Below are positions 4,784 through 64,000 of a DNA stretch of 64,000 bases, piece by piece. A program made the translations under genes and the position numbers. The notes beneath the pieces are model-generated. The model had not been told where the DNA came from. It ran no database searches and saw only the letters and a list, made by a program, of their open reading frames with translations. Origin of the DNA: Candidatus Eiseniibacteriota bacterium (GTDB lineage Bacteria > Eisenbacteria > RBG-16-71-46 > CAVPCR01); NCBI GenBank assembly GCA_963702435.1, contig CAVPCR010000006.1, positions 127,135 to 191,134 of the forward strand, written 5' to 3'. Positions within the stretch are counted from its first letter, which is position 1, and every line of letters starts with the position of its first letter.

Positions 4784-4990
4784 GACCGACCTGACTCCCT
4801 CGCCGCTCGATGGCTCGACTCGCGTGCCGGCCCATCCCGGCGCGCCGCCGCAGCGCGGCCGGGCACGGCGTCGACCGGCCTCCGCGCCCGGATCCCCCTT
4901 ACCAGATCGTCGCAGCGGGCGGGCAGCTTGACCGGCGGGCGGACACCGCCCGCGGGCTGCCGCGATCGCGGCGCGGCCCACCCTGAGGCA

Positions 4991-6232: not shown

Positions 6233-6348
6233 CGTGCAGATTCCTCGCCCGAGGTGACGCGAGACGGATCCAGTGCCGTCGCGCCTGCTGCCGCGGAGAG
6301 CGCGCAGCTCCCGGCCGCAACCGGCGCGACGGCGCTCGCGACGACCCG

Positions 6349-6597
6349 CTAGGCTTCCTGCTTCACGTGCTTGCGCAGGTAGTCGACCGCGTCGCGAACG
6401 GTCGTCATCTTTTCGGCGTCCTCGTCCGGGATCTCGATCTCGAACTCCTCCTCGAGCGCCATGACCAGCTCGACCTGATCCAGCGAATCGGCGCCGAGGT
6501 CATCGATGAACGAAGCATCGGCCGTCACCTGATCGGCGGAAACGCCGAGCTGCTCGGTGATGATCTCCTTGACTCGCTGCTCGCTGAACGCCGCCAT
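6349..6597 (-). CDS. acpP: Acyl carrier protein
   Basis: 82 aa with the phosphopantetheine site [20 protein letters not shown]. Confidence 0.96.
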
Positions 6598-6692
6598 TCG
6601 TTAACCTCCGCGTTGCGGTCTCGCCGCGGACCGGAGCTCCGCTTCCGGCGCTCCGGTCTCGGCTTTCGGTTGGGCGAGGCCTCGTGCCTCGC

Positions 6693-7469: not shown

Positions 7470-7490
7470 GGCTGCGCCACGCCCCCGGCG

Positions 7491-13738: not shown

Positions 13739-14215
13739 CTACGGGACCGGCCGGCGCAGGCGCGCGATGGTCTCGGTGGTCGAGTGGCCGGGACGGAACG
13801 GGATCAGCACGACGCGACCGCCGGCGGCCTCCACCGTGTCGCGACCGACGACGGCGGCGAGCGTGTAGTCGGCGCCCTTGGCGAGGACGTCGGGCACGAG
13901 GGCGGCGATCAGCGCCGCCGGCGTGTCCTCGGTGAAGATCACCACGCGGTCGACGGCGGCGAGTGCGGCGAGGACATGGGTGCGGTCGTCCGCGGCGGTG
14001 AGCGGCCGGCCCGGCCCCTTCAGTCGCCGCACCGAGTCGTCGTCGTTGACGCCGACGACGAGGGCGTCGCCGAGGGCGCGCGCCGCGGCCAGGTACTCGA
14101 CGTGGCCGCGATGGAGGAGATCGAAGCAGCCATTGGTGAAGACGACCCGCCGCCCCGCCTGTCGCAATTCCTCGCGCCAGAGCACAGCTTCCTCGCGAGT
14201 CACGACCTGGCCCAT
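13739..14215 (-). CDS. hldC: D-glycero-beta-D-manno-heptose-1-phosphate adenylyltransferase (RfaE domain II type, cytidylyltransferase fold)
   Basis: [19 protein letters not shown]...[17 protein letters not shown]...VVIFTEDTP. Confidence 0.85.
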
Positions 14216-14233
14216 GGCGTTCTCCCGTTCCCC

Positions 14234-15238
14234 TCAGCCGTTCTGCGCCAGAGACTCGCGGAGCGCGGCCACCGTCGTGGTGGCGGTACCGATCTCGCGG
14301 ATGACGAGCCCGGCGGCATGGTTGGCGATCAGGGCGGCCACCTTGCGATCCGCGCCGGCGGCGAGCGCCAGGGCGAAGGCGGCGACCACCGTGTCGCCGG
14401 CTCCGGTCACGTCGTACACCTCCTGGGCCACGGTCGGGAAGTGCGTGTGCTCGGCCGGCAATTCGAAGAGCGACATCCCCTGCTCGCTGCGGGTGATGAG
14501 GACGGCCTCGCACCCGAGCCGCGCCAGGAGTCCGAACCCCGCCGCCTCGAGCCCCGCCTCGTCCTGGATGCGCCGGCCGTAGGCGTTCCCCGCCTCGGTC
14601 AGGTTCGGGGTGATGACGCTCACGGCGCGATAGGCATCGAAGTGGGACTCCTTGGGATCCACGCACACCGGCACCCCGGCCGCCGCCGCGCGCGCGAGCA
14701 CGGCGACGAGGAGATCGCGCTCGATGACCCCCTTCCCGTAGTCGGAGATGACGAGCGCGCCGGCGCCGGGGAGCGCGGCGGCGATCTCCCGCTCGAGCTC
14801 GGCCGCGACCGCCGGCGAGATCGGGGCCACGTCTTCCTGATCGGCGCGCACCACCTGCTGATGATGGGCGATGATGCGCGTCTTCTGCGTGGTGCGGCGG
14901 GCAGGATCGGCCTTCAGGTGATCGGCGGCGAGCCCGCGTGCCGCGAGCGCGGCGCCGAGCGCGGCCGCTGTCGCGTCGTCCCCGGTCACGCCCACGAGCA
15001 CCGGGACGCCGCCGAGCGCATGCACGTTGTCGGCGACGTTGGCGGCCCCGCCGAGACGCACCGTCTCGCGGTTGACCTCGACGATCGGCACCGGAGCTTC
15101 CGGGGAGATCCGCCGCACGGCCCCCCACAGATAGCGATCGAGCATGACGTCGCCGAGGACGACGATGCGCCGGCCGGGGAAGCGGCCGAAAGCCGCCTCG
15201 ATGCGCTCGCGCGGGATCGCGACCCGATGAGCTCCCAT
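14234..15238 (-). CDS. hldA: D-glycero-beta-D-manno-heptose-7-phosphate kinase (RfaE domain I type, PfkB family)
   Basis: IVVLGDVMLDRYLWG...ISPEAPVP...LGGAANVA...ITPNLTEA...DVTGAGDTV. Confidence 0.85.
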   Translation of the reverse strand: MGAHRVAIPRERIEAAFGRFPGRRIVVLGDVMLDRYLWGAVRRISPEAPVPIVEVNRETVRLGGAANVADNVHALGGVPVLVGVTGDDATAAALGAALAARGLAADHLKADPARRTTQKTRIIAHHQQVVRADQEDVAPISPAVAAELEREIAAALPGAGALVISDYGKGVIERDLLVAVLARAAAAGVPVCVDPKESHFDAYRAVSVITPNLTEAGNAYGRRIQDEAGLEAAGFGLLARLGCEAVLITRSEQGMSLFELPAEHTHFPTVAQEVYDVTGAGDTVVAAFALALAAGADRKVAALIANHAAGLVIREIGTATTTVAALRESLAQNG

Positions 15239-50866: not shown

Positions 50867-51397
50867 TCAGGCCTCGGGCTCACCGGGTCCGGGGCCGCTT
50901 CGCGCCGGACTCTCGGCCGCGGCCATCGGCTCGCGGGGCTCGCGCGGCTCGCGCGGCTCCCGCGGCTCGCGTTCGACGTTATCGGCATCGCGATCGCGCC
51001 GGTCGAAGCGCCGGCCGCCGCTGAAGCCCTCCCCGCGACGGCCGCCGTGGTAGCCCTCCCCGCGGCGATCCCCACCGTGCGTGAAGCCCTCGGCCGACGG
51101 CGGCGCGGACGGCCCGAGGGAGAGGACGGTCAGGTAGCGGAGCAGGGACTCATTGAGCAGGTAGCGGCGCTTGATCTCGTCGAGCACCTCCCGCTCCGAC
51201 TTGAAGCGGATGAGCGAGTAGATGCCCTCGCGCTTCTTCTGCACCTCGTAGGCCAGGCGCCGGCGCCCCCAGCGCTGCACCTCGAGCACCTCGCCCCCGC
51301 CCTGCGTGATCACGGTTGAGACCGTCTCGATCTCCTGCTCGACTCGCGTGTCGTCGAGCGTCGGATCGAGCACGATCACGGTTTCGTACTCCCTCAC
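50867..51397 (-). CDS. rpsF: 30S ribosomal protein S6 with a Gly/Arg and (EPR)n C-terminal extension
   Basis: MREYETVIVLDPTLDD...WGRRRLAYEV.K..EGIY. The GTG start overlaps the pth stop (GTGA). The tail is ...EREPREPREPREPREP... Confidence 0.92.
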   Translation of the reverse strand: MREYETVIVLDPTLDDTRVEQEIETVSTVITQGGGEVLEVQRWGRRRLAYEVQKKREGIYSLIRFKSEREVLDEIKRRYLLNESLLRYLTVLSLGPSAPPSAEGFTHGGDRRGEGYHGGRRGEGFSGGRRFDRRDRDADNVEREPREPREPREPREPMAAAESPARSGPGPGEPEA

Positions 51398-52053
51398 GTG
51401 GTTACCTCCTCTGATCCCGAGCGGCGTCCCCGCGGCGGGGCGGCGCCGGCCTCTCCATCAAACCCGGCCGGCCGCTCCTCGTCGTCCGGTCCCGGTGCGT
51501 TCCAGCGGTTCATCGCCGCATCGATTCCCTGGCCGAGCACCGTGTCGATCACCGCGAGCCCCGCGGTGACGGCGGGCCCGACCTTCGCTTCCTCCTCGGC
51601 CGTGAAGTCCTCGAGCACCCAGTCCTTCATGTCGCGTCCCGGCGGCGGGCCGCCGACTCCGAAGCGGAGCCGGGCGAAGCACGCGCTCGCGAGGACGTCG
51701 ATCAGCGACTTGAGCCCGTTGTGGCCGCCGTCGCCACCCTGCTTGCGGAGCCGGAGGCGTCCGAGCGGCAGGTAGATGTCGTCGACCACGACCAGGATCT
51801 CCTCCGGGTCGATCTTCTCCCGGCGCATCACCGCCGCCACCGCGTCCCCCGAGCAGTTCATGTACTCGAGCGGACGCATGATGAGGAGCGGCCGGCCGCG
51901 CCGGCGCCCGCGCGCGATCTCGCTTGACCCGGTGCGGGCGAAGCGCTCGCCGCCGACGAGCTCCCGGTACGCCGCCGCCACGCGGAAACCGATGTTGTGA
52001 CGGTTCCGCGCGTAGGCAGGTCCGGGGTTGCCGAGACCGACCACGAGGAGCAC
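51394..52053 (-). CDS. pth: Peptidyl-tRNA hydrolase
   Basis: LLVVGLGNPGPAYARNRHNIGF...MNCSG...GGDGGHNGLKS. Confidence 0.94.
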   Translation of the reverse strand: MLLVVGLGNPGPAYARNRHNIGFRVAAAYRELVGGERFARTGSSEIARGRRRGRPLLIMRPLEYMNCSGDAVAAVMRREKIDPEEILVVVDDIYLPLGRLRLRKQGGDGGHNGLKSLIDVLASACFARLRFGVGGPPPGRDMKDWVLEDFTAEEEAKVGPAVTAGLAVIDTVLGQGIDAAMNRWNAPGPDDEERPAGFDGEAGAAPPRGRRSGSEEVTT

Positions 52054-52062
52054 GGCTTGAGC

Positions 52063-52797
52063 TCAGTCCTTGTCCCGGCCCTTGCCCCGCTCCCTGTCCT
52101 TGTCCTTGTCCTTGTCCTTGTCCCTGTCCTTGTCCTTGTCCTTGTCCTTGGCGTCGCCCGCGGCTTCCTCGCCCGCAGCCGGTGCCGCCTCGGCCGCCGC
52201 CGCGGCAGCGACCTCCGTATCGGCCTTCACGATCCGCGGCGCGCTCACGGTGACAACGACCATCTCCGGCTCGCTCAGGAGGTCGTACTTGTCCGACTCG
52301 ATCGCGAGGTCGCGGACGTGGATCGCGTCGCCGATGTGCAGGCTCGAGATATCGATGACGAAGCGATCCGGAATGTTGTTCGGAAGGCACTTGAGCTCGA
52401 TGCTGCGGAGCGGGTACTCGAGGATGCCCCCCTCGTCCTTGACTCCCGGCGCGGTACCCTCGATGAGGAGCGGCACCTGGACGTGCACCTTCTCCTTGAG
52501 CGAGATGCGCTGGAGGTCGACGTGGATCACCTTGCCCGTGATCGGGGCCCGCTGGAGCTCGCGGATCACGGTCAGGCGGCTGTCCTCGGGCCGGTCACCG
52601 AGCTTGAGATCGATGATCATGGTGCCCGTGCGCTGACGGACCAGCGCGTTCAGATCGTTGGCCGAGAGCGCCACCAGCTCCGGATCGAAGCCGTGGCCAT
52701 AGACAACAGCCGGGATCTGACCGGCCACCCGCAAGCGGCGAGAGGGCCCCTTGCGTCCCACCTCTCTCCGCGATGCCTTGAGTGTCATGGTCGCCAT
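52063..52797 (-). CDS. rplY: 50S ribosomal protein L25 / general stress protein Ctc with a (KD)n tail
   Basis: GKGPSRRLRVAGQIPAVVYG...VIRELQRAPITGKVIHVDLQRI. The C-terminus DAKDKDKDKDRDKDKDKDKDRERGKGRDKD is encoded by CTTGTC hexamer repeats at 52095-52150. Confidence 0.92.
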   Translation of the reverse strand: MATMTLKASRREVGRKGPSRRLRVAGQIPAVVYGHGFDPELVALSANDLNALVRQRTGTMIIDLKLGDRPEDSRLTVIRELQRAPITGKVIHVDLQRISLKEKVHVQVPLLIEGTAPGVKDEGGILEYPLRSIELKCLPNNIPDRFVIDISSLHIGDAIHVRDLAIESDKYDLLSEPEMVVVTVSAPRIVKADTEVAAAAAAEAAPAAGEEAAGDAKDKDKDKDRDKDKDKDKDRERGKGRDKD

Positions 52798-52866
52798 GGT
52801 TGATGACTCTCCTTCACTGCCTGCATTTCGCGCTCGCGCGCGGGCGCACGCCGCGAAGCGGCGTGC

Positions 52867-53781
52867 TCAGACGAACAGGGAGCTCAGCGAACGCTCCTCG
52901 TGGATGCGGCGAATCGCCTCGCCGAGGAGCGCCGCCACGGACAGCACGGTGAACTTCTCGCCCAGGTCCGGATGCGGGATGGTGTCGGTGATGATGACCT
53001 CCTTGATCGGCGAGACGTTCAGCCGCCCGACCGCATCGGCCGAGAAGACCGAGTGGGTGGCGCAGGCGTAGACCGCGCGCGCGCCGAGACGAAGCGCGGC
53101 ATCGGCGGCCTCGCAGATGGTGGTCGCGGTGGAGATCATGTCGTCGAGGATGAGAATGGTCTTGCCCTCGGTCTCGCCGATCACGTGCATCACCTCGGCC
53201 ACATCAGGCCGCGGGCGGCGCTTGTCCGCCACCGCGAGATCGGCGCCCAGGCGCTTGGCGAAGGCCCGCCCGAGCTTGGCCGAACCGATGTCCGGCGACA
53301 GGATGCAGAGATCCCGCCAGTTGCGCGCCTTCACGTGCTCGAGGATGACCGGGGCCGCGAACAGGTGATCGAACGGAATGTCGAAGAACCCCTGGATCTG
53401 CGCCGAATGCAGATCCATGGTCAGGAGCCGGTCGGCCCCCGCCGCCGAGATCATGTTGGCGACGAGCTTGGCGGTGATCGCCACCCGCGGCTGATCCTTG
53501 CGGTCCTGCCGGGCGTAGCCGAAGTACGGCATGACCGCGGTGATGCGCCGCGCCGACGCGCGCCGGGCGGCATCCAGCATGATGAGGAGCTCCATGATGT
53601 TGTCCGCCGGCGGAAAGGTCGGCTGGAAGATGAACACGTCGTTCCCGCGGATGTTGGCGTTGATCTTGACCGAGATCTCGCCGTCGCGGAACCGCGTGAC
53701 CTCGCCGTCGCCGAGCTCGATTCCGAGATACGAGCAGGTCTTCCTGGCCAAGGGCAGGTTGGCCGTCCCCGAGAAGACCAT
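52867..53781 (-). CDS. prs: Ribose-phosphate pyrophosphokinase
   Basis: MVFSGTANLPLA...RFRDGEISV...MPYFGYARQDRK...LTMDLHSAQIQGFF...ILDDMISTATT. Confidence 0.95.
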   Translation of the reverse strand: MVFSGTANLPLARKTCSYLGIELGDGEVTRFRDGEISVKINANIRGNDVFIFQPTFPPADNIMELLIMLDAARRASARRITAVMPYFGYARQDRKDQPRVAITAKLVANMISAAGADRLLTMDLHSAQIQGFFDIPFDHLFAAPVILEHVKARNWRDLCILSPDIGSAKLGRAFAKRLGADLAVADKRRPRPDVAEVMHVIGETEGKTILILDDMISTATTICEAADAALRLGARAVYACATHSVFSADAVGRLNVSPIKEVIITDTIPHPDLGEKFTVLSVAALLGEAIRRIHEERSLSSLFV

Positions 53782-54135
53782 CAACCGATCCACCTGGACC
53801 TCCCCTCCCGCCGCGCGCTCCGGCGTTCGCCTCGCTGCTGCATGTTGCCGCTCTCCAGCTCCATGACGGCAGTCAGTCGCCTCTCCGCTTCCAGGACCCA
53901 GGCCGGTCGCCGCCGTCCGGTCCGCACCCTGCTGCCGCGCACCGGCCGGCCGCGACCCACCCCGCAACCGACAAAAAAGCCCGGCGAACGAGACCCATGT
54001 GGACGCACCTCGGTGAGGCGCGCCTCCCCGTCACGCCCGAGGGCAGACCGGGAGGATGGCATTCGCGGGCTCGCTACGCTCTGATCGCGATCTGTCGTAC
54101 GTGTCGTTTTCTGGTCAGCCGCTCCCGCCCGAAAC

Positions 54136-54210
54136 TGGCTGGGGCGGGAGGATTCGAACCTCCGGATACGGGATCCAAAGTCCCGCGCCTTACCACTTGG
54201 CGACGCCCCA
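54136..54210 (-). tRNA. tRNA-Gln (anticodon UUG), CCA encoded
   Basis: The minus strand is TGGGGCG TC GCC AAGTGGTAA GGC G CGGGA CTTTGGA TCCCG TATCC GGAGG TTCGAAT CCTCC CGCCCCA G CCA. It folds as a full cloverleaf and is arm-for-arm comparable to E. coli tRNA-Gln. Confidence 0.93.
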
Positions 54211-54545: not shown

Positions 54546-55547
54546 TCACCCTCCATGCGATGGATCCCCGGCCGCCCCCGGAACCCCGGGTCTTGAGGTC
54601 CTGACCGTGGGCAGGACCCGGCAGCCAGCGCGGGATGGACGACACAGGTGGACAGGGTGATCCAGGCGACCAAGCGATGCGACGAGGGCCCGCGCCTCCG
54701 CCTCGCCCACGACCAACGCGTAGGCGGCGGATCCGCTGCCACTCATGCGCGCCCCGACGGTCACGCTTCTTCTCAGTTCCTCGAGAACCCCCGCCACCAC
54801 CCCATAGCGCCGAGCCACAACCTCCTCGAGGTCGTTGACCAGAGCGCGCGCGATCCGAGACCAACTGCGCTCGCGAATCGCGGACTCGAGCATGCTAGAC
54901 GACTGCCCCCGGGATGTCAACTCCTCTGCCGTCCTAGCTGCATATGCCCATTGCGTTTCCACCGGCACTCCGGGGGCGACGAGGACCACCCGGCAGGGCG
55001 GGAGCGGCGGCAGGCGGCGAAGCCGCTCACCACGGCCGGTGGCAAAGCAGGTCCCCCCGACCAGGAAGAAGGGCACATCCGAGCCGAGATCGGCGGCCAG
55101 GCGGAGGAGGGCGGCGGACCCGAGAGGTCGGCCGAGGAGGTGGTTGAGGCCGAGGAGGACGGCGGCGGCATCGGCGGAGCCCCCTCCGAGCCCGGCGGCG
55201 AGCGGGATCCGCTTCTCGAGATGGATCGCGATGCCGAACTGCGGCAAGGCCCCGCCATCCCGAACCGGGGCTCTGGCCCGGGCCGCGAGAAAGGCGGACG
55301 CCGCCTGGACCGCGAGGTTGGCCGGACCGACGGGCAAGGCAGCCCCGGTCACCGTGAGCGCGATCCCGGTCCCCGGCGCGACCTCGAGCCCGACCTCGTC
55401 GGCCAGATCGATGGCCTGCATCACGGTTGCGAGATCATGGTAGCCGTCCGGGCGCCGGCGGAGGATCTCGAGGGTGAGGTTCACCTTGGCCGGGGCGAGG
55501 ACCCGCACCCGGCTCGTTCCCTCGCTCTCCGGCCCCGCGCGCTCCAT
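54546..55547 (-). CDS. ispE: 4-diphosphocytidyl-2-C-methyl-D-erythritol kinase
   Basis: APAKVNLTLEILRRRPDGYHDL...LEKRIPLAAGLGGGSADAAAVLLGLN...MSGSGSA. Confidence 0.9.
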   Translation of the reverse strand: MERAGPESEGTSRVRVLAPAKVNLTLEILRRRPDGYHDLATVMQAIDLADEVGLEVAPGTGIALTVTGAALPVGPANLAVQAASAFLAARARAPVRDGGALPQFGIAIHLEKRIPLAAGLGGGSADAAAVLLGLNHLLGRPLGSAALLRLAADLGSDVPFFLVGGTCFATGRGERLRRLPPLPPCRVVLVAPGVPVETQWAYAARTAEELTSRGQSSSMLESAIRERSWSRIARALVNDLEEVVARRYGVVAGVLEELRRSVTVGARMSGSGSAAYALVVGEAEARALVASLGRLDHPVHLCRPSRAGCRVLPTVRTSRPGVPGAAGDPSHGG

Positions 55548-55570: not shown

Positions 55571-56455
55571 TCAGTCGACGTACAAGATGAGGGCGACCGC
55601 GCCGAGCCAAAGGAGCGTGTTCAGGAGGAGCGGCCCGTCGGTCAGGAGCACCTCGGTCGGATTGCCGCCCGAGCGCCGTTCGAGCACGAGGTACGTGTAG
55701 CGGAAGACGCCGTAGACCACGAAGGGGATCGTGTAGACGAGGGCCGGGGACTGGAACCTGGCCAGCGTGGCCGGCGCGATCGTGTATGTCGCGTAGGCGA
55801 TGATTGTGGCGGCGGTCATCACGCCCATCATGAGATCGAGGAGCCGCGGCGAGTAGTCGGCGAGCGTACGGCGATGCGTGGCGGCCTTGAGATCGAGGAG
55901 CACGAGCTCCTGGTGCCGCTTGCCCGTGGCGAGGAACAGAGCGAGGAACAGGGTGCACACCTCGAGCCAGGGCGAGATCTGGGTGGTCGGATCGACGGCG
56001 CGTATGACCTCGACGCCGGCGATCGCGCGCAGCACGAAGCCGACGGCGATGGCGAGCACGTCGAGGATGATCACGCGCTTCAAGACGAGCGAGTAGGCGA
56101 AGATGAGCAGCGTGTACGCCGCCGCCGCGAGCGCGAAGCCCGGGGCGAGCCGCGCCGCGGCGGTGAGGCCGGCGGCGAGGAGCACGGCGGCGGCCGCGAG
56201 GCCGACGCCCGGCTTGAGCGCCCCCGAGGCCATCGGCCGGAGCTTCTTCTCCGGATGCAGACGGTCGCGTTCGAGGTCGAGGAAGTCGTTGATCAGATAG
56301 GAGGCGCTCGACACGGCGCAGAAGATCAGGAAGCCGCCCACGGCGCGCAGGAGAAGCACCGGGTCGGTGGCGTGCTGCGAGAAGATGAGGCCGGCGAAGA
56401 GGACCCCGTTCTTCACCCACTGCCGGGGCCGGAGACCGGCGAGGAGCGCTCGCAT
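55571..56455 (-). CDS. UbiA-family prenyltransferase resembling decaprenyl-phosphate phosphoribosyltransferase (DPPR synthase type)
   Basis: MRALLAGLRPRQWVKNGVLFAGLIF...SASYLINDFLDLERDRLHPEKKLRP.ASG, then 8-9 TM helices. The ATG overlaps the upstream stop (TGATG). Confidence 0.7.
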   Translation of the reverse strand: MRALLAGLRPRQWVKNGVLFAGLIFSQHATDPVLLLRAVGGFLIFCAVSSASYLINDFLDLERDRLHPEKKLRPMASGALKPGVGLAAAAVLLAAGLTAAARLAPGFALAAAAYTLLIFAYSLVLKRVIILDVLAIAVGFVLRAIAGVEVIRAVDPTTQISPWLEVCTLFLALFLATGKRHQELVLLDLKAATHRRTLADYSPRLLDLMMGVMTAATIIAYATYTIAPATLARFQSPALVYTIPFVVYGVFRYTYLVLERRSGGNPTEVLLTDGPLLLNTLLWLGAVALILYVD

Positions 56456-58149
56456 CAGCGCGCCTCGTGGATCGGCGGGCACACCGCGGGATCCGGCTCC
56501 GCGGACGCCGCGACGAGCCGGGACGCGCGGCGCGTCTCGCCCGGGACCGGGACGGCGTTCTCCGCGCCGCCGGTCAGCACCGGGCCGCCCTGCGCGCCGG
56601 CGAGCGCCCCCCTTCCGGCGAGCGCCCCCCCTGCATCGACCTGCTTGATCTGGTGCGCGACCTCGGCCGCCCACCCCACGGCGTTGGCCCCCGCCTCTCC
56701 GTAGAGGAAGCGCCGGGCGCTCGTTCCGGCCCCGCGCGCATAGCGCCAGAAGCTCCACGGCATGCCGACGATCAGGAACGCCACGAGCTTCCGGAAGTGC
56801 TCGGGAGTGTCGGCGAAGAGCTCGGTGCCGTCGGCCTCGAGCTCCTCGATGCGCGGCGCGACCGGCTTCAAGCGGTCCCGCCGGACGCCGCCCCAGAGCG
56901 CGGCGAGGAGCCGCGGCAGGCTGGCCAGCGGCCCGCTCGCTCCCTCCGGATAGAGCGCGATCGCGCGCACGTAGGGCGCGTGAAAGATGGGGTCCATGTC
57001 CACCTCGACGACCCACTCGAGACCGCCACCGCTCCGGGCGCGCAAGCGCTCGTGCTCGCGCGCCTCGCGATGGGCCGTCAACCGTGCGTAGTCGTACCAC
57101 AGCTCGCGATAGTGGGCATCCCCGACCACCCACTCGAGGCGGCCGGCGTCGGGACCGTCGGCCCTGACCCAGCACTCCACCCGTTCCCAGTCCCGCTCCC
57201 AGAACTTGAGGAGTTCGCCGGGCACGAGCGTCACGAAGCGCCACACCCAGTAGCGTTCGCCGCGGAGCCAGGCCGGAGCATGGCCGCGGGCGGCATAGGG
57301 GTAAGCCGGCGACGCGGGGTCGTTCACGTAGAGGAAGAGGGTCGGCGGCAGGCCGCGCGGGACGAGGAACCACTCGACGGCGAAGAAGAGGAGCACGAAT
57401 CCCAGCGAGAACCAGGCGAGCCCCGACACCGATTCCGGGAGCTGCCACAGATGCCGGAAGGCCACGATGGGGAGCGGCGCGACGAGCGCGGTGAGCGGAT
57501 CGCGGAGCAGCCCGAGGAGAAGGAGAGCGAGGAACAGGTAGAGCGCCCCCGTCAGGTGATCCCCGAGCGGCCGGAGGACGGCGAGGCTCCCGAGATGCGG
57601 CAGCACGGCGAGCGAGAGCCCGATGGCGAGGAGCCCGGCCAGGAGGAACTTGTACGTGGGATAGAAGAGGCTCACCGCGCACTGCGCGCCGCGCGGATCG
57701 ATGAGCCTCTCCCCCACCGTCCGGCCGGCCGCGGTCACCCGCACGCGCCCCGGTCCCGCCGGCTCCAGGTGGAGGCAGTGCCGGCCCATCACATCGTCCA
57801 CCGGGTGGCCGAGCCGCTTCGCGCGCCCGCGGACGAGCCGCATGATGTCGTAGACCACGCGGTAGGGCATGAGCACCGGCAGGAACACGAAGGCCAGGAT
57901 GTAGTAGCGGAGAGCGGGCAGGCGCGTGCGCGGGCGATCGATCGCGCGCCGGAACTGGCCGAGCGTCAGCCGCCCGCCGGCGAGCACGGCCGGCGACACC
58001 ACGCCTTCCAGGTTGAAGACGCTGGCCCAGTAGTCGCAGTAGAGAAAGGGGCCGAGCCCGGGAGTGTTTCGATCCACGTCGCGATCGCGGCTGCGGGGGC
58101 CCCGCCGCGCGGGCGGGGTGCCCTGGTACTCGGAGATTCCGCCGCTCAC
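56455..58149 (-). CDS. Hypothetical membrane protein (564 aa): ~5 TM helices + a ~300-aa Trp/Arg/Glu-rich soluble domain; no family recognised
   Basis: The GTG at 58149 overlaps the EamA-like stop (GTGA). Composition is not shadow-like: ...YWVWRFVTLVPGELLKFWERDWERVECWVRADG...HYRELWYDYARL... Confidence 0.6.
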   Translation of the reverse strand: MSGGISEYQGTPPARRGPRSRDRDVDRNTPGLGPFLYCDYWASVFNLEGVVSPAVLAGGRLTLGQFRRAIDRPRTRLPALRYYILAFVFLPVLMPYRVVYDIMRLVRGRAKRLGHPVDDVMGRHCLHLEPAGPGRVRVTAAGRTVGERLIDPRGAQCAVSLFYPTYKFLLAGLLAIGLSLAVLPHLGSLAVLRPLGDHLTGALYLFLALLLLGLLRDPLTALVAPLPIVAFRHLWQLPESVSGLAWFSLGFVLLFFAVEWFLVPRGLPPTLFLYVNDPASPAYPYAARGHAPAWLRGERYWVWRFVTLVPGELLKFWERDWERVECWVRADGPDAGRLEWVVGDAHYRELWYDYARLTAHREAREHERLRARSGGGLEWVVEVDMDPIFHAPYVRAIALYPEGASGPLASLPRLLAALWGGVRRDRLKPVAPRIEELEADGTELFADTPEHFRKLVAFLIVGMPWSFWRYARGAGTSARRFLYGEAGANAVGWAAEVAHQIKQVDAGGALAGRGALAGAQGGPVLTGGAENAVPVPGETRRASRLVAASAEPDPAVCPPIHEAR

Positions 58150-58589
58150 TGGCCGGCGATGGTCTCGACCTCGCCGCTCCGCGGCGCCGCCCCGCCCGGC
58201 CCGCCGTGCGCCTGATCGCTCGGCGGCGCGCTGAAGGCCAGGAGCGCCACGCCGCCGCAGATGATGCCGACCCCGATGATGCGGGCGATGCTCACGTGCT
58301 CGCGCAGGAGCAGCCATGAGAAGAATACCACCAGCACATAGCCCATGCTGACCAGCGGGTAGGCGAGGCTGAGCGGTAGCTTGCTCAGGATGAACAGCCA
58401 GAAGAGCGAGCTCACGCCGTACATGAGAAAACCGAGGAGCACGATCGGGGTCGTGAACAGCTTGACGTAGTAACCGATGGGGCCGGTCTCCTCCATGCTC
58501 AGGTTCAGGCGCCCGATGGCGTACTTGAGGATGAGCTGGCCGGCCACCGCCGGGGTGACGCTGCAGAGAACGAGCAGAATGCTCTTCAT
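58146..58589 (-). CDS. Small EamA/SMR-like 4-TM transporter (ArnE/ArnF-like size and topology)
   Basis: 147 aa: MKSILLVLCSVTPAVAGQLILKYA...LSLAYPLVSMGYVLVVFFSWLLLRE.VS..RIIGVGIICGGVALL. Confidence 0.7.
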   Translation of the reverse strand: MKSILLVLCSVTPAVAGQLILKYAIGRLNLSMEETGPIGYYVKLFTTPIVLLGFLMYGVSSLFWLFILSKLPLSLAYPLVSMGYVLVVFFSWLLLREHVSIARIIGVGIICGGVALLAFSAPPSDQAHGGPGGAAPRSGEVETIAGQ

Positions 58590-58592
58590 GAC

Positions 58593-59363
58593 TCAGGATC
58601 TCCTGGAACGCGTCGGCACGCGGGGAAAGAGCTCGGCCTCGATGCGGGCGCACAGGAGATGGCCGAGGAGCAGATGGACCTCCTGGATGCGGGCGGTGTC
58701 GTCGCAATCGACGACGAAGCCCAGGTCGCAGGTGGCCGCGAAACGCCGGCCGCGCCGGCCGGTGAGACCGATCGTCCGGATGCCGAGCTCGCGCGCGGCG
58801 GCGAGAGCTTTGAGCACGTTCGGCGAGCGGCCGCTGGTCGTGAGCGCGACGAGGACGTCGCCCGGGCGCCCGATCGCGCTGAGCTGGCGGGCGAACACGA
58901 ACTCGTAGCCGTAGTCGTTGGCGACGGCGGTCAGCGCGGGCACGCTGTCGTTCAGGGCGAGCGCGTGCAGCGGGGCGCGGTCGTAGTAGAAGCGGCCGGC
59001 AAGCTCGGCGGCGAGGTGCGCCGCCTCGGCGGAGCTGCCGCCGTTGCCGCAGAAGAGGATCTGATTCCCGCCGCGGAGGGCCTCGACCGCCAGCGCGATC
59101 GCCGCGACCAGGCGCTCCTCGTGCGCGCCGGCCAGCGCTGCGAGCCGGGCCGCCTCGGCGATCCCGGCCGCGAGCGCGGTGCGATGGGCGCCCTCGACCG
59201 CCCGGCCCCGGCTCCCCGTCCGCGAGGCGCGCTTCCGGATCACCGCGCCGCCTCGCCGAGTCGTCGCATCACCTTGCGGGGTCGCATCGCCTCGCCGGGT
59301 TGTCGCATCGCCTTGCCGGGTCGCATCGCCTCGCCGGGTTGTCCCGCCGCTTCCCCGCGTCAT
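58593..59363 (-). CDS. gmhA: Phosphoheptose (sedoheptulose-7-phosphate) isomerase, SIS domain, with an N-terminal tandem-repeat extension
   Basis: ILFCGNGGSSAEAAHLAAEL...ALNDSVPALTAVANDYGYEFVFARQL...VLVALTTSGRSPNVL...GLTG. The ATG at 59363 overlaps the upstream stop (ATGA). Confidence 0.82.
   Translation of the reverse strand: MTRGSGGTTRRGDATRQGDATTRRGDATPQGDATTRRGGAVIRKRASRTGSRGRAVEGAHRTALAAGIAEAARLAALAGAHEERLVAAIALAVEALRGGNQILFCGNGGSSAEAAHLAAELAGRFYYDRAPLHALALNDSVPALTAVANDYGYEFVFARQLSAIGRPGDVLVALTTSGRSPNVLKALAAARELGIRTIGLTGRRGRRFAATCDLGFVVDCDDTARIQEVHLLLGHLLCARIEAELFPRVPTRSRRS
59251..59345. repeat. Imperfect ~18-21-nt tandem repeats (GTCGCATCGCC(T)TGCCGGG...) coding (T)RRGDAT(R/P)QGDAT in the gmhA N-terminus
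   Basis: The repeats are directly visible at 59263-59340. Confidence 0.75.
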
Positions 59364-60295
59364 CGGTTCCCTCCCCGCGCCGGCGCCACCGCCGGTTCGC
59401 TCGTCGCGGCCGAGCGCCGCCGCCAGTCCGCCATGGACTCCGCGAGCGCCGCCGGCCACGGACGCGGCGGCACCCCGGTCCACCCGGCGAAGCGCGCGCA
59501 GTCGAGGACCGAGTAGCGGGGGCGGCGCGCCAGGCGCCCGTTCTCGGCCTGCGTCGTCGGCAGGATGCGATCGGGATCGAGGCCTGCCAGCTCGAGCGTG
59601 GCGCGGGCGAAATCGAAGCGGCTGACCCCACCCGTGTTGGCGAGGTGCACGATACCCGTGGCCTCCGCTGCGATGAGCGCGGCCAGGCCACGGGCGAGAT
59701 CGGCGGCCGCCGTCGGGCATCCGACCTCATCGGTGACCACGCGGAGGGGACGCGCCGGATCGGAGGCAGCCGCGAGGATCGCGTTCACGAACCCCTTCTT
59801 GCGGCCGTAGAGCCAACCCCCGCGCACGATGAGCGCGGCGGGGACGGCCGCGCGGGCCGCCGTCTCCCCCTCGAGCTTCGAGCGGCCGTAGGCGGAGAGA
59901 GGGCCCGGCGCGTCCGTCTCCACGTACGGCTCGGACTTCTCGCCGCTGTAGACGTAGTCGGTGCTCATGTAGAGGAGTCGCGCGCCGGTGGCGGCCGCCG
60001 CCGCCGCCACGTTCGCCGTGCCGCCGACGTTCAGGCGCGCGGCCGCGCCCATCTCCTGCTCGGCCTGGTCGACGGCGGTGTAGGCGGCGAGATGGACGAC
60101 CCAGTCCGGCCGCGCCGCCGCGATCGCCGCGCCGATCGCCGCCGCGTCGCACACGTCCACGAGCGCGCGCCCCGCGAACTCGCCCCCGGCCACCTCGTGC
60201 CCGGCAGCCTCGAGCACCGGCACGAGCGCGCCGCCGACGAGCCCGCCGGCTCCCGTCAGGTAGATCTTGAACCGCAGCATCGCGCCCTCGCCCAT
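59360..60295 (-). CDS. dTDP-4-dehydrorhamnose reductase-like NAD(P)-dependent sugar reductase (RmlD family)
   Basis: IYLTGAGGLVGGAL...VVHLAAYTAVD.AE...STDYVYSG....PY.E.D...PLSAYGRSKLEGE. The start is 60295 or 60280. Confidence 0.8.
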   Translation of the reverse strand: MGEGAMLRFKIYLTGAGGLVGGALVPVLEAAGHEVAGGEFAGRALVDVCDAAAIGAAIAAARPDWVVHLAAYTAVDQAEQEMGAAARLNVGGTANVAAAAAATGARLLYMSTDYVYSGEKSEPYVETDAPGPLSAYGRSKLEGETAARAAVPAALIVRGGWLYGRKKGFVNAILAAASDPARPLRVVTDEVGCPTAAADLARGLAALIAAEATGIVHLANTGGVSRFDFARATLELAGLDPDRILPTTQAENGRLARRPRYSVLDCARFAGWTGVPPRPWPAALAESMADWRRRSAATSEPAVAPARGGNR

Positions 60296-60302
60296 CCCGG
60301 CT

Positions 60303-61367
60303 CTAGACCTCGACCTCGCTCGAGTCGCCGATCATGAAACGGCTGGCGCGCGGCCGGCCCCGCCCCCGGGTGATGCGCACGTCCTTGCCGATCAGGCTCG
60401 ACTCGACACGCGTCTCGAGGTCGATGATCTGGCTCCGCTGGAGCACGATGGAGTGCTCGATCTCCGAGCCCTGGAGAGTGACTTCGTCGCTGAGCGCCGT
60501 GAAGGGCCCCACGTAGGAATCGATGATCCGGCAGCGCTCGCCGATGATGAGCGGCCCGCGGAGCACGCTCCGCTGGACGGTGGTGCCGGCGCCGATCACG
60601 ACCTGGCCCTCGATCCGGCTCTCGTCGTCCACCTCGCCGCGGATCTCCCGCACGATGTCGGAGAGCATCATGCGGTTGGCTTCGAGCATGTCCTCGAGCT
60701 TGCCGGTGTCCTTCCACCAGCCGGTGATGATGTGCGAGCGCACGTCGAACTTCTGATCGATCAGGTGCTGGATGGCGTCGGTGATCTCGAGCTCGCCGCG
60801 GCCGGACGGCTTGATGGCGCGCGCCGCCGTGAAGATCGTGCGGTCGAACATGTAGACGCCGACGAGCGCGTAGTTGCTCTTCGGCTGCCGCGGCTTCTCC
60901 TCGAGCCCGATCACCCGGTTCTGGGCGTCGAGCTCCGCCACCCCGAACTGGCTCGGGTTCGGCACCTTGGCGAGGAGGATCTGGCAATTGGGACGCTCGC
61001 GCCGGAATTCCTCGACGAGCGGCACGATGCCGTCGCGAATGCAGTTGTCGCCGAGGTACATGACGAAGGGGTCGTCCTGGATGAAGTCCTCGGCGATGAG
61101 GACGGCGTGGGCGAGCCCGCGCGGCGCGTCCTGCGGCAGGTAGGTGACGCGCACGCCGAAGCCGCCGCCGTCCCCGACCGCGGCCCGGATCTCCGCCTGG
61201 GTGTCGCCGACGACGATCCCGACCTCGGTGATCCCGGCGGCGTGCACCGCCTGGATGGCGTGGAAGAGGATCGGCTGGTTCGCCACCGGGACGAGCTGCT
61301 TCGCGCTCGTGTGCGTGATGGGCCGGAGCCGCGTGCCCCGGCCGCCGGACAGGATGAGACCTTTGAT
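60303..61367 (-). CDS. Sugar-1-phosphate nucleotidyltransferase, long RmlA-like form with a C-terminal left-handed beta-helix. The conserved N-terminus has no canonical start (ATC at 61367 after GGAGGG).
   Basis: The in-frame sequence upstream of the listed ORF reads D-I-KGLILSGGRGTRLRPITHTSAKQLVPVANQPIL (the G-x-G-T-R-x loop). The only ATG/GTG/TTG after the upstream TAG is the GTG at 61286, which would delete this loop. Confidence 0.75.
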   Translation of the reverse strand: MKGLILSGGRGTRLRPITHTSAKQLVPVANQPILFHAIQAVHAAGITEVGIVVGDTQAEIRAAVGDGGGFGVRVTYLPQDAPRGLAHAVLIAEDFIQDDPFVMYLGDNCIRDGIVPLVEEFRRERPNCQILLAKVPNPSQFGVAELDAQNRVIGLEEKPRQPKSNYALVGVYMFDRTIFTAARAIKPSGRGELEITDAIQHLIDQKFDVRSHIITGWWKDTGKLEDMLEANRMMLSDIVREIRGEVDDESRIEGQVVIGAGTTVQRSVLRGPLIIGERCRIIDSYVGPFTALSDEVTLQGSEIEHSIVLQRSQIIDLETRVESSLIGKDVRITRGRGRPRASRFMIGDSSEVEV

Positions 61368-61400
61368 GTCGCCCTCCGCGTCTCCTTGAGCCTGATCCTA

Positions 61401-61484
61401 CACTGGCCCTTCCGCCGGCACTGGCCCTTCCGCCGGCCGGGCTCTTCGTCCGGGCGCCGGCCGGGCTCTTCGTCCATGCGCCGG
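61401..61484. repeat. Two adjacent direct-repeat pairs in the alaS/rmlA-like intergenic region: CACTGGCCCTTCCGCCGG x2, then CCGGGCTCTTCGTCC(GG/AT)GCGCCGG x2
   Basis: Copies at 61401-61418 and 61419-61436 (exact), and at 61437-61460 and 61461-61484 (2 mismatches). Confidence 0.85.
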
Positions 61485-61491
61485 CCGCTCT

Positions 61492-64000
61492 TTAGAACGT
61501 CGCCCCGGCGCCCAGGCGTTCGCGCAGGAACTCGCGACCGCGGTCGAGGGCCGGATCGATGAGCTCGACCGCCTTGCCGCCCGACCCCATCGCCTGGTGC
61601 GGCTTGCCGCCGCCCGTCCCGCCGGCGACCGCCGCCACCTCGCGCACGAGCTCGTCGGCGCGGAGACCGCCTGCGATCACGTCGTCCGTGGCCACCGCCA
61701 GGAACGATACCTTGCCGCCCATCACGGCGGCCAGGATGCCGGCACCCGACCGCAGGCGGTCGCGCAGGTGATCTCCCGCCCGCCGCAGGAGGTCGATCGA
61801 ATCCACATCGATCCTCGCCGCGACGAAGCGGCGCCCTCCCGTGTTTTCGGCTCTCGCGAGCGCTTCCTCCACCTGCTTCTCGACGCCGCCGCCGGCGGTG
61901 CCCTTCATCTTCTGCTTGAGATCGGCGTTCTCCTTGAGCACCGCCTTGAGCCGGTCGGCCACCTGGACCCGCGGCACTCCGAGGATCTGTCCGAGCTCGT
62001 CGAGACGGCCCTCGAGCTCCAGGGTGAGCGCGAGCGCGCCGAGCCCGGTCACCGCCTCGAGCCGGCGCATGCCGGCGCCGACAGCGCCCTCGGCCACGAT
62101 CTTGAACAACCCGATGTCGCCGGTGCCCCGGCAGTGCGTGCCGCCGCACAGCTCGAGCGAGAAGCCCGGGACCCCGATCGTGCGCACCTCGCGCCCGTAC
62201 TTCTCGCCGAAGAGCGCGATGGCCCCCCGCGCTCGCGCCTCGTCATAGGACTGGGTGCGCACGTCGACCGGCGTGTTCTTGAGGATCTCGCGATTCACGA
62301 GCTCCTCGATCGCCGTGCGCTCGGCCGGCGTCACGGCGGCGAAGTGCGTGAAATCGAAGCGCAGGTGCGTGGACGAAACGAGCGATCCGGCCTGCTGCAC
62401 GTGCGTCCCGAGGACGGCGCGGAGCGCGGCATGGAGAAGATGCGTGGCGGTGTGGTTGCGCATGGTCGCGCCGCGCAGGTGCGGATCCACACGGGCGGTG
62501 ACGCGTGCGCGGACGAGATCGGCCGGCCCGCCGGCGAGGAAGCGGCCGCGGTGCACGTGGCTCTTCACGGTCTCCCCGTCGGGGCCGGACACCGCCGCCA
62601 CCGTGTCGGCGACCTGGATCCGGAACCCATCGCCCTCGATCGTGCCCTGATCCCCGACCTGCCCCCCGCTCTCGGCGTAGAAAGGGGTCTCGTCGAGAAC
62701 GACCTCGATCCCCTCCGCCGTCTCCCGGTAGCGGCGAACGGTGGCCTCGAGGATCAGCGTCTCGTAGCCGCGGAACTCCGAATCGGGTCCGTCCGTCACC
62801 TCGGTCCACGGCCCGCCGGCCCCCTCCGCGGCGACCGCATGGAAGCGGTGCGCGCGGCGCGCCCGCTCCCGCTGCTCGGTCATCGCGGTCTCGAATCCCG
62901 GTCGATCGACCGTGAGCCCCTCTTCGCTCGCCATCTCGGCCGTCAGGTCGACGGGAAAGCCGTAGGTGTCGTAGAGCTGGAAGATGTCGGCGCCCGAGAG
63001 CTCGGCCGCCCCGCCGGCGCGGCGCTCGGCGACGATGGCCTGGAAGCGCTCCATGCCCGAGTCGAGCGTGCGGGCGAAGCGTTCCTCCTCCGACTGCGTG
63101 ATGCGGAGGATCGCCTCCTTCATCCCCTCGAGCTCGGGATAGATCGCCCCGTAGTGGCGGATCACGGTCTCGGCGATCCGGTAGAGGAACGGCGCGGCGA
63201 TCCCGAGCTCGCGACCGCGCCGCGCGGCCCGGCGGAGCACGCGGCGGATGACGTAACCGCGCCCCTCGTTCCCCGGCACCACCCCGCCGGCGATGGCGAA
63301 GGCGAGCGCGCGGGCGTGGTCGGCGACGATGCGCACGGCCACCCGGCGCCCGTCGTCGGGCATGGCGGCGAGGGCGGCGAACTCGAGGACGTCGTCCACG
63401 AGCGGGCGGAGGAGGTCGGTCTCGTACGTAGACGGCGCCCCCTGCACGATGAGGGCGAGCCGCTCGAGACCCATGCCGGTGTCGATCCCGGGTCGCGCGA
63501 GCGGCAGCCGCCGCCCGTCGGCGTCCTGGTTGAACTGCGGAAAGACGAGGTTCCAGAACTCGAGGTAGCGATCGCTCTCGCCGAGCGCGCCCTCGCGGCC
63601 GCCGGGATCCGCCGCCGGGCCCACATCCCAGTACAGCTCGCTCGACGGACCGCAGGCCCCGGTCGAGCCGGCCGGTCCCCAGAAGTTGTCCTTGTCCCCG
63701 AGGCGTACGATCCGGCCGGGCAGGAGGTCGGTCTCCGCCTCCCACAGCCGGGCCGCCTCGCCGTCCGATTCGTGCACCGAGACCCAGATGCGATCGCGAT
63801 CGAGCTCGACCACCGTGCGCACGAACTCCCAGGCCCAGGCGATCGCCTCGCGCTTGAAGTAGTCGCCGAAGGAGAAGTTCCCGAGCATCTCGAGGAACGT
63901 GTGATGGCGGATGGTGTGCCCGATCTGGTCGATGTCGGTCGCGCGCAGGCACTTCTGCACCGACACGGCGCGCGTGAACTCTGGGTTCGCAGCGCCGTAG
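61492..64000 (-). CDS. alaS: Alanine--tRNA ligase; N-terminus lies outside the window
   Basis: ...SVQKCLRATDIDQIGHT.RHHTFLEMLGNFSFGDYFK...ELCGGTHC...GGGKP. The frame is open to the window edge. Confidence 0.95.
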   Translation of the reverse strand, partial: YGAANPEFTRAVSVQKCLRATDIDQIGHTIRHHTFLEMLGNFSFGDYFKREAIAWAWEFVRTVVELDRDRIWVSVHESDGEAARLWEAETDLLPGRIVRLGDKDNFWGPAGSTGACGPSSELYWDVGPAADPGGREGALGESDRYLEFWNLVFPQFNQDADGRRLPLARPGIDTGMGLERLALIVQGAPSTYETDLLRPLVDDVLEFAALAAMPDDGRRVAVRIVADHARALAFAIAGGVVPGNEGRGYVIRRVLRRAARRGRELGIAAPFLYRIAETVIRHYGAIYPELEGMKEAILRITQSEEERFARTLDSGMERFQAIVAERRAGGAAELSGADIFQLYDTYGFPVDLTAEMASEEGLTVDRPGFETAMTEQRERARRAHRFHAVAAEGAGGPWTEVTDGPDSEFRGYETLILEATVRRYRETAEGIEVVLDETPFYAESGGQVGDQGTIEGDGFRIQVADTVAAVSGPDGETVKSHVHRGRFLAGGPADLVRARVTARVDPHLRGATMRNHTATHLLHAALRAVLGTHVQQAGSLVSSTHLRFDFTHFAAVTPAERTAIEELVNREILKNTPVDVRTQSYDEARARGAIALFGEKYGREVRTIGVPGFSLELCGGTHCRGTGDIGLFKIVAEGAVGAGMRRLEAVTGLGALALTLELEGRLDELGQILGVPRVQVADRLKAVLKENADLKQKMKGTAGGGVEKQVEEALARAENTGGRRFVAARIDVDSIDLLRRAGDHLRDRLRSGAGILAAVMGGKVSFLAVATDDVIAGGLRADELVREVAAVAGGTGGGKPHQAMGSGGKAVELIDPALDRGREFLRERLGAGATF

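Follow-up and report, generated by a model that had tools for sequence, protein, structure and literature searches.

A cluster of six genes in an uncultured bacterium probably brings together three separate and already known routes to envelope precursors (rhamnose, heptose and lipid-carried ribose), which lie side by side in a conserved operon. The cluster occupies positions 55571 to 61367 of a 64,000-nucleotide stretch of DNA from a Candidatus Eiseniibacteriota bacterium (assembly GCA_963702435.1, contig CAVPCR010000006.1, positions 127,135 to 191,134), the whole of which we refer to as the window. Its last gene, ubiA, encodes an enzyme which, judging from its sequence, is of the polyprenyl-phosphate phosphoribosyltransferase class that depends on phosphoribosyl pyrophosphate (PRPP), and is not a quinone, haem or archaeal-lipid prenyltransferase. 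An initial annotation of the window had read the cluster as one pathway with an unpredictable product; we found instead that rmlA and rmlD, gmhA and ubiA each fall in a separate known precursor route. The six genes are:

60303..61367, minus strand: rmlA, long form, glucose-1-phosphate thymidylyltransferase with a C-terminal left-handed beta-helix
59360..60295, minus strand: rmlD, dTDP-4-dehydrorhamnose reductase (other possible start at 60280)
58593..59363, minus strand: gmhA-like sedoheptulose-7-phosphate isomerase with a SIS domain (other possible start, GTG at 59243)
58146..58589, minus strand: SMR/EamA-like membrane protein of 147 amino acids (aa), candidate polyprenyl-phosphate-sugar flippase
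56455..58149, minus strand: membrane protein of 564 aa from an unnamed family, between the SMR gene and ubiA
55571..56455, minus strand: ubiA, predicted UbiA-superfamily polyprenyl-phosphate 5-phosphoribosyltransferase (PPPRS/DPPRS type)

The positions, the shared minus strand and the junctions of these open reading frames (ORFs) were as initially annotated when read from the sequence. Seven nucleotides (nt) separate rmlA from rmlD, or 22 nt if rmlD starts at the ATG at 60280; rmlD and gmhA share an ATGA overlap, gmhA and the SMR gene are 3 nt apart, the SMR gene and the 564-aa gene share a GTGA overlap, and the 564-aa gene meets ubiA in TGATG with a 1-nt overlap. The operon runs on into the next gene, ispE, whose ATG at 55547 is 23 nt past the UbiA stop. 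Consensus scans found no promoter-like sites within the six genes and one terminator-like match, inside the SMR ORF, where shuffled sequence averages 1.7 such matches.

Identity of the UbiA enzyme

Domains were assigned with the curated models of Pfam and NCBIfam and their cut-offs. The UbiA protein has the UbiA superfamily fold (PF01040) and scored 271.7 bits against the NCBIfam model NF008977, "decaprenyl-phosphate phosphoribosyltransferase" (cut-off 234), with residues 5-294 aligned to positions 6-290 of the 297-position profile; in a genome-wide search with the same model it scored 273.8 bits. The best model of a prenyltransferase which is not of the PRPP type reached 41.5 bits, with haem O synthase at 38.1 and ubiA_proteo at 24.2. 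Among solved structures the protein matched mycobacterial Rv3806c (8j8j) with an E value of 3.8e-30, residues 4-288 aligning to 17-296, and the next UbiA-family structure was an archaeal DGGGP synthase at 1.5e-3. Neither the hidden Markov model scores nor the search of PDB sequences grouped the protein with quinone or haem prenyltransferases.

The residues which bind the donor were also largely conserved. In Rv3806c, as described in PMC10994848, the pyrophosphate is contacted by R22, K87, R90, K143 and Y138, Mg and the ribose by N73 and D77, the ribose O3 by Q135 and the 5-phosphate by K28, Y70 and Y157. Nine of these 11 contacts were identical in the window protein (R9=R22, K15=K28, Y53=Y70, N56=N73, D60=D77, K70=K87, R73=R90, Y121=Y138 and K126=K143). 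In the 8j8j alignment F140 replaces Y157, and a phenylalanine at this position is found in some mycobacteria according to the same source. The Asp-rich loop N-D-x-x-D-x-x-x-D was present as well, with N56, D57, D60 and D64 aligned to N73, D74, D77 and D81 of Rv3806c. Across an alignment of 29 UbiA homologues, of which one was from Zixibacteria and another from Latescibacterota, the invariant residues were K15, Y53, N56, D57, D60, D64, K70, R73, Y121, F140, R180 and E183; these include seven of the nine identical contacts, and of the other two R9 was kept in at least 90% of the homologues and K126 was the majority residue only.

This evidence agrees with the class which had first been proposed for the protein. 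That the enzyme is instead an ordinary aromatic or haem prenyltransferase, akin to UbiA, MenA or CtaB, is scarcely credible. Such a reading could draw on the shared PF01040 fold and on the JGI automatic name "4-hydroxybenzoate polyprenyltransferase", which many homologues carry, but the scores and E values given above favour the PRPP type by a wide margin, and the residues at the 5-phosphate contacts (K15, Y53 and F140) are invariant, while the phosphoribose sites are described as not conserved among other UbiA enzymes (PMC10994848). The class had also been taken to be actinobacterial, a view which is now outdated, as Gram-negative members which act on O-antigens and pilins have been characterised (PMC11127046).

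Of 121 genomes sampled from the phylum, 116 had a homologue of the enzyme (E value of 1e-20 or better), and in 113 of these it was the only match. The counts over 121 genomes reported here for UbiA, RmlB and PF00908 include one unpublished genome, G044, without which the UbiA count is 115 of 120. At NCBI the Eisenbacteria homologues are already named "decaprenyl-phosphate phosphoribosyltransferase". In the genome of the window, tblastn found ubiA, the long form of rmlA, gmhA, the SMR gene and the 564-aa gene in a single copy each, gmhA being the only phosphoheptose isomerase.

Gene order across the phylum

We compared about 17 kb around ubiA in 40 genomes of the phylum, which were selected for long contigs and spread over families (G044 was excluded), and searched these loci with the proteins of the window. 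The genes ubiA and ispE were present in all 40 loci, as were prs, rplY, pth and rpsF, followed by rmlD (38 loci), alaS (37), gmhA (29), rmlA (28) and the SMR gene (3), and the 564-aa gene was found in none. The conserved string in the phylum was alaS-(rmlA)-rmlD-(gmhA)-ubiA-ispE-prs-rplY-pth. Directly upstream of ubiA stood gmhA in 26 loci, rmlD in 9 and the SMR gene in 3 (38 of 40 loci in total), which leaves no room for the SMR and 564-aa genes in most genomes, and the complete six-gene form was found only in the window and in a relative of the same genus. The expectation that the operon would be syntenic in relatives therefore held across the phylum for rmlA, rmlD, gmhA and ubiA, and failed for the SMR gene and the 564-aa gene.

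The following features of the window lie beside the six genes or are linked to them by function:

61492..63999, minus strand: alaS (alanyl-tRNA synthetase-like ORF), directly upstream, truncated by the window end and named from its translation alone
54546..55547, minus strand: ispE (GHMP kinase), directly downstream, with Pfam GHMP_kinases_N and GHMP_kinases_C
54136..54210, minus strand: tRNA-Gln, anticodon TTG, between ispE and prs (ARAGORN)
52867..53967, minus strand: prs, ribose-phosphate pyrophosphokinase (Pfam Pribosyltran_N, 8.2e-49), which makes PRPP, the predicted UbiA donor
13754..15181, minus strand: hldE-like heptose kinase/adenylyltransferase, about 43 kb off in the same window (tblastn)

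The gene at 54546..55547 is presumably ispE, a name and role which we take from its N-terminal sequence rather than from a family-level assignment. After it come tRNA-Gln, prs, rplY (L25/Ctc), pth and rpsF, all on the same strand (window positions 50867-54210). It is no more than suggestive that both predicted substrates of the UbiA enzyme would come from routes encoded just downstream, with isoprenoids from the route of ispE and PRPP from prs.

Beyond the phylum, a Latescibacterota locus (L197, 2017-7965) was found to hold four genes between rmlA-rmlD and ubiA-ispE, encoding a WbaP-like phosphoglycosyl transferase, a GT4 glycosyltransferase, a phosphogluco/mannomutase and a uridine kinase. 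From this gene order it follows that the link between ubiA and glycan genes reaches past the phylum.

It should also be noted that short tandem duplications cluster near the gene boundaries of the window (61401-61487, 59249-59343 and 59364-59431). The spacer between alaS and rmlA holds an 18-nt repeat (x2.1) and a 24-nt repeat (x2.4), and the 3' end of rmlD a repeat of 29-31 nt (x2).

The dTDP-L-rhamnose genes

Both rhamnose enzymes of the cluster scored above their curated cut-offs. RmlA reached 454.8 bits against TIGR01208, rmlA_long (cut-off 320.25), and matched Pfam NTP_transferase at 3.4e-56; RmlD reached 254.8 bits against TIGR01214 (cut-off 224.05), was matched by solved RmlD 1vl0 with an E value of 2.5e-46, and is the sole protein of its genome above the TIGR01214 cut-off. 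The cluster had been described as lacking RmlB and RmlC, which is true of the locus and not of the genome, where both are encoded on other contigs: rmlB at C1:416256 (433.8 bits, cut-off 365.1) and an rmlC-type cupin at C4:133577 (PF00908, 203.1 bits). The RmlABCD set for dTDP-L-rhamnose is thus complete in this genome. Across the 121 genomes of the phylum, RmlB was above its cut-off in 106 and PF00908 was found in 117. We also considered RmlD as an orphan reductase in genomes without the rest of the Rml set, and dropped this idea because of the 106 genomes with RmlB above cut-off. Most genomes of the phylum had only a weak RmlC-like cupin (50-70 bits to PF00908), adjoining rmlB (for example at G100:C70, G111:C20, G022:C10 and G009:C88), and a strongly scoring RmlC was seen in only about two dozen; the 3,5-epimerase of the phylum may be a divergent one.

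An alternative is that the RmlD-like short-chain dehydrogenase/reductase (SDR) acts, solely or additionally, on the UbiA product, as an epimerase or reductase which converts polyprenyl-phosphate-ribofuranose to the xylofuranose or arabinofuranose form, in the manner of ORF13 of Citrobacter youngae O2 or of DprE2. The position of rmlD speaks for this, as it is a direct or close neighbour of ubiA in 38 of the 40 loci, directly adjoins it in about 10 which have no gmhA, and is retained in 12 loci which have no rmlA. A single SDR is described as fixing the pentose in Citrobacter (PMC11127046), and the genome of the window gave no match to a DprE1-like ALO domain. However, the protein passed the equivalog cut-off for RmlD, its best solved relatives were all RmlD, and it is the only RmlD of a genome in which RmlA, RmlB and RmlC are all present. 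In addition, of the 12 genomes without rmlA at the locus, RmlB was above cut-off in nine and just under it in one, and two had no match at an E value of 1e-90. We therefore regard a role for RmlD on the pentose as quite unlikely.

The start of rmlA is unusual. At 61367-61365 the first codon is ATC, which is non-canonical, with a strong GGAGG ahead of it at 61376-61372 and an in-frame TAG ten codons upstream (61398-61400); no ATG, GTG or TTG lies between. The first canonical start, GTG at 61286, would remove the GGxGTR nucleotide-binding loop, and solved RmlA structures align from residue 1 of the protein (3hl3, E value of 1.1e-54). Among 28 relatives which matched from residue 1, the aligned first codon was ATC in 11, ATA in 3, ATG in 8, GTG in 4 and TTG in 2. 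Eight of the 11 ATC loci had no canonical in-frame start from the upstream stop to the essential Gly-rich loop. The aligned sequences point to a conserved non-canonical start codon in rmlA, and the ATC start is possibly a point of translational control.

GmhA and the heptose route

The GmhA protein was matched by a solved GmhA (1tk9) with an E value of 4.8e-47. Its N-terminal ~55 residues form a poorly conserved, low-complexity extension rich in Arg, Gly and Thr, whose repetitive part is encoded by a 39-nt tandem repeat (x2.4) at 59249-59343, and solved GmhA structures align only from residues 55-90 of the ORF. The start of gmhA is accordingly uncertain: an in-frame GTG at 59243 would give a spacer of 117 nt in place of the ATGA overlap, so that the coupling of rmlD and gmhA hinges on the chosen start.

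Candidate genes for later steps of the heptose route were found elsewhere in the genome. With the PfkB and CTP_transf_like protein of a locus from another family of the phylum (L117) as query, tblastn found the hldE-like gene at C6:140888-142315 (35% identity over 499 columns, E value of 2e-49). Five matches to GT9 heptosyltransferases were above cut-off, and LpxC scored 311.7 bits. These three findings bear out the earlier description of the organism as a diderm with heptose genes.

The SMR protein and other possible partners of a predicted lipid-linked ribose

The SMR protein has several hydrophobic segments and matched Pfam EamA (30.4 bits) and Multi_Drug_Res (24.1 bits), just above threshold. 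Its best NCBIfam matches were to ArnF at 59.6 bits (cut-off 99) and ArnE at 43.2 bits (cut-off 92). An ArnE/F-like SMR protein is thus present near UbiA, as had been noted.

We looked for the remaining components of a lipid-ribose system in the cluster and in the genome, which is 85% complete. No HAD or PAP2 domain was found by Pfam in the six proteins, a search which covered the cluster alone. None of the six proteins matched a GT-C family in Pfam or NCBIfam, and 14 PMT_2 matches above cut-off were found elsewhere in the genome. The DprE1-like ALO domain (PF04030) had no match in this genome, at its 85% completeness, and was found in Corynebacterium by a control search. A GtrA-family protein was likewise not found in the incomplete genome, and the cluster holds no MATE protein.

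In the L117 locus (4332-7922) the genes between rmlA and ubiA, where rmlD and gmhA would otherwise stand, encode an HldE-type kinase/adenylyltransferase, an ARMT1-like (DUF89) damage-control phosphatase and a protein of 397 aa which Pfam did not match. The ARMT1-like enzyme might perform the missing dephosphorylation; a tblastn search with it gave no homologue in the genome of the window.

The 564-aa membrane protein

The 564-aa protein consists of about 4-5 hydrophobic segments followed by a beta domain rich in Trp, Glu, Asp and Arg (residues ~264-505), and both of its long loops are basic. It had no match in Pfam or NCBIfam. A word-based search for relatives gave 149 matches; 89 genomic stretches encode one, and 80 of these loci were kept. 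An exhaustive search gave 64 representatives at an E value of 0.001, 16 of them at 1e-30. The relatives come from records labelled Candidatus Eisenbacteria, Gemmatimonadota, Longimicrobiales, Zixibacteria, Krumholzibacteriia and Latescibacterota, with one from Verrucomicrobiae. In 34 sequences of the family we found 52 invariant columns, which are concentrated in the Trp/Glu/Asp/Arg-rich stretch, and this stretch is all that is shared by remoter proteins of 400-1000 aa. Pfam searches gave only single chance matches for 39 domain sequences, at E values up to 5, and nothing above any cut-off for 24 distant relatives.

The gene does not belong to the conserved operon: it is a genus-specific insertion from an unrelated family. 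As described above it was absent from all 40 phylum loci around ubiA, and conversely none of the 80 loci which hold its relatives outside the genus (some of which may be one genome twice) had UbiA, gmhA or the SMR gene within 8 kb. At an E value of 1e-8 no match to UbiA, rmlA, rmlD, gmhA or SMR was found in these 80 loci; at 1e-2 there were three stray weak matches (rmlA, rmlD and ispE) and still none to UbiA, gmhA or SMR. Of five genomes with the family, two gave no UbiA match, one gave only weak matches (E value of 1.5e-5) and two gave strong matches which lie elsewhere in the genome. No neighbours of the family were shared across phyla. Some Gemmatimonadota loci had the recurrent neighbours Lrp/AsnC regulator, UDG-family protein and DUF1207 protein, none of which is glycan-related.

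Predicted models were confident, with a pLDDT of 76.1 and a pTM of 0.79 for the whole protein, and 86.1 and 0.85 for the domain (264-505). Foldseek searches of the PDB with both models gave no match at an E value of 0.001; the Nep1-like (NLP) structure 3st1 recurred weakly (E values of 0.18-0.25, probability 0.41). With VIA-align in its wide mode, the best Z score was 7.2 for the whole model, on helices 158-245 only, and 5.2 for the domain, and the domain aligned to 3st1 with a Z score of 4.2 and a root-mean-square deviation of 3.5 over 90 residues, which is within background, so that no fold was assigned. The ESM Atlas returned only "hypothetical" clusters, with Vps62 named on 20% of the members of the cluster ranked 10th (score 0.89). 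The Nep1-like and Vps62 similarities may serve as leads only. Regarding a GT-C transferase, the 4-5 hydrophobic segments compare with 7-13 transmembrane helices in that class, and no GT-C chain was among the fold matches listed. We suggest, as a rather doubtful possibility, that the 564-aa protein is an accessory membrane-anchored binding module.

These results also bear on whether the six genes might form one dedicated pathway to a novel polyprenyl-phosphate-linked sugar, derived for example from a heptose or a deoxyhexose, with the 564-aa protein as its transferase. The genes are tightly coupled, with overlaps or gaps of 0-7 nt, they are membrane- and sugar-related, and in the genus the 564-aa gene overlaps both of its neighbours. 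However, ubiA is constant while the content around it varies (rmlA is missing from 12 of the 40 loci and gmhA from 11), and the soluble enzymes are single copy with their standard partners elsewhere in the genome. The 564-aa family, moreover, was not found with any of the other five genes in the 80 loci outside the genus at an E value of 1e-8, and three of the five genomes which encode it have no UbiA match or only a weak one. A single dedicated pathway is very unlikely on this evidence.

Proposed roles of the genes and their significance

We propose that the operon serves three known routes. RmlA would catalyse the first step of dTDP-L-rhamnose synthesis and RmlD the last, with RmlB and RmlC encoded elsewhere. 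GmhA would isomerise sedoheptulose-7-phosphate on the way to ADP-heptose for the lipopolysaccharide core, with HldE and the GT9 heptosyltransferases encoded elsewhere. At the cytoplasmic face of the membrane UbiA would move 5-phosphoribose from PRPP onto polyprenyl phosphate; a phosphatase would dephosphorylate the product and the lipid-linked ribofuranose would then be flipped, with the ArnE/F-like SMR protein as the likely flippase in the genome of the window, and one or more periplasmic GT-C enzymes encoded elsewhere would use the lipid-ribofuranose to decorate an envelope glycan. The family assignments, the single-copy status, the synteny and the conserved residues of the PRPP site were observed directly. 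The lipid acceptor, dephosphorylation, flipping, the GT-C step and the target glycan are proposed by analogy with the Citrobacter and mycobacterial systems.

Several findings weigh against this proposal and should be noted. In UbiA, Ile118 replaces Gln135 of Rv3806c, the ribose O3 contact, and the Q135A mutant of Rv3806c is described as losing 70% of its activity (PMC10994848); this is one contact of 11, and we do not regard it as disqualifying. None of 14 model genomes, including that of Corynebacterium glutamicum, reached the NF008977 cut-off. GmhA scored 179.2 bits against TIGR00441, under the cut-off of 209.45, and the SMR protein was below the cut-offs of both ArnE and ArnF. The SMR gene stands beside ubiA only in 3 of the 40 phylum loci and in the same-genus relative, which means that most relatives would have to flip the lipid otherwise or not at all. 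By Pfam, no phosphoribose phosphatase, GT-C or epimerase is encoded in the cluster. The order alaS ... ispE-tRNA-Gln-prs-rplY-pth is conserved as well as that of the sugar genes, and since it also holds alaS, pth and ribosomal protein genes, the synteny is no proof of one shared glycan. Finally, the closeness of rmlD and ubiA in 38 of the 40 loci is left unaccounted for by three separate routes.

A bolder reading would make the lipid-ribose synthase, with its homologues in 116 of the 121 genomes and its set place between the rhamnose/heptose genes and ispE-prs, a core housekeeping enzyme in Eisenbacteria, and perhaps in neighbouring FCB-group phyla, and not an optional modifier of serotype. 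This would imply an essential pentofuranose envelope polymer, and the RmlD-like SDR might then double as the pentose epimerase and the 564-aa protein, with its new Trp/Glu/Asp-rich domain, be a newly recruited component. We consider this combination unlikely.

On the reading of three side-by-side routes, an uncultured diderm phylum joins the bacteria which probably draw on a lipid-linked pentofuranose donor made from PRPP. In this phylum the gene is near-universal and single copy and lies among housekeeping genes, whereas the systems studied so far belong to variable loci for O-antigen or pilin modification. Should the donor supply a glycan that is essential to the envelope, such systems would have a biology that goes beyond the diversification of serotypes. 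In other respects the cluster is mostly ordinary: the families of all its enzymes are known, their reactions can be predicted, and the key gene is already named by automatic annotation. Two by-products may be worth attention, namely the conserved ATC start of rmlA and the unnamed membrane-protein family which spans several FCB-group phyla.

Comparison with known systems

In Gram-negative bacteria, periplasmic pentofuranose side chains are described as being made by a UbiA-type polyprenyl phosphoribose synthase together with a fused or separate phosphatase, a flippase and a GT-C (Kelly et al. 2024, PNAS, PMC11127046). Optional epimerases, either a single SDR or DprE1/E2, alter the pentose, and candidate systems were reported widely. 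In Citrobacter the single cytoplasmic SDR which fixes the identity of the pentose has TGxxGxxG and YxxxK motifs.

The ORF12-ORF15 system of Citrobacter youngae O1/O2 resembles the window in having a UbiA-type synthase which places ribose from PRPP onto polyprenyl phosphate (a predicted activity in the window) in a diderm. The loop residues N247, D248, D251 and D255 of ORF15 correspond to N56, D57, D60 and D64 of the window protein and its R-x-x-E loop to R180 and E183, all residues which were mutated in that work (PMC11127046). A gene for a small putative membrane transporter adjoins ubiA in the window cluster, and GT-C genes are present in the genome. Unlike the system as described for C. youngae, the window has no fused HAD phosphatase, has an SMR-like protein (in few relatives only) in place of a MATE flippase, and has neither a dedicated epimerase gene nor a GT-C in its cluster, as judged by matches to GT-C families in Pfam and NCBIfam. 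Its ubiA is also near-universal, single copy and part of a housekeeping string rather than of a variable O-antigen locus.

Rv3806c of Mycobacterium tuberculosis (DPPRS; 8j8j/8j8k) aligns over its full length with the window UbiA, with nine of the 11 PRPP/Mg contacts described in PMC10994848 identical. It differs in that the window protein falls in another NCBIfam subfamily (NF008977), has Ile for Gln135 and has no PAP2 neighbour. With respect to the decaprenyl-phospho-arabinose pathway as a whole, the genome of the window, 85% complete, had no DprE1-like ALO match and no GtrA (DprE2 was not searched), and belongs to a diderm with LpxC.

The pilin arabinofuranosylation of the Pseudomonas aeruginosa PA7 type, compared here by its description in PMC11127046, is alike in that the synthase of this Gram-negative species is of the UbiA type and stands alone, with no phosphatase fused to it. 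In the same source arabinofuranose glycans come with DprE1/E2 homologues, unlike in the genome of the window, where no DprE1-like ALO match was found.

The SMR protein of the window resembles the ArnE/ArnF undecaprenyl-phosphate-aminoarabinose flippase (NF002816, NF011625): it is small and SMR-like with several hydrophobic segments, ArnF and ArnE are its best NCBIfam matches, and its gene adjoins that of an enzyme predicted to make a polyprenyl-phosphate sugar. However, the SMR protein is below both cut-offs, is encoded by one gene and not a pair, and has a C-terminal tail of 30 residues. Set against the three-component system as a whole, the predicted proteins of the window appear to fit its first component well and its second loosely.

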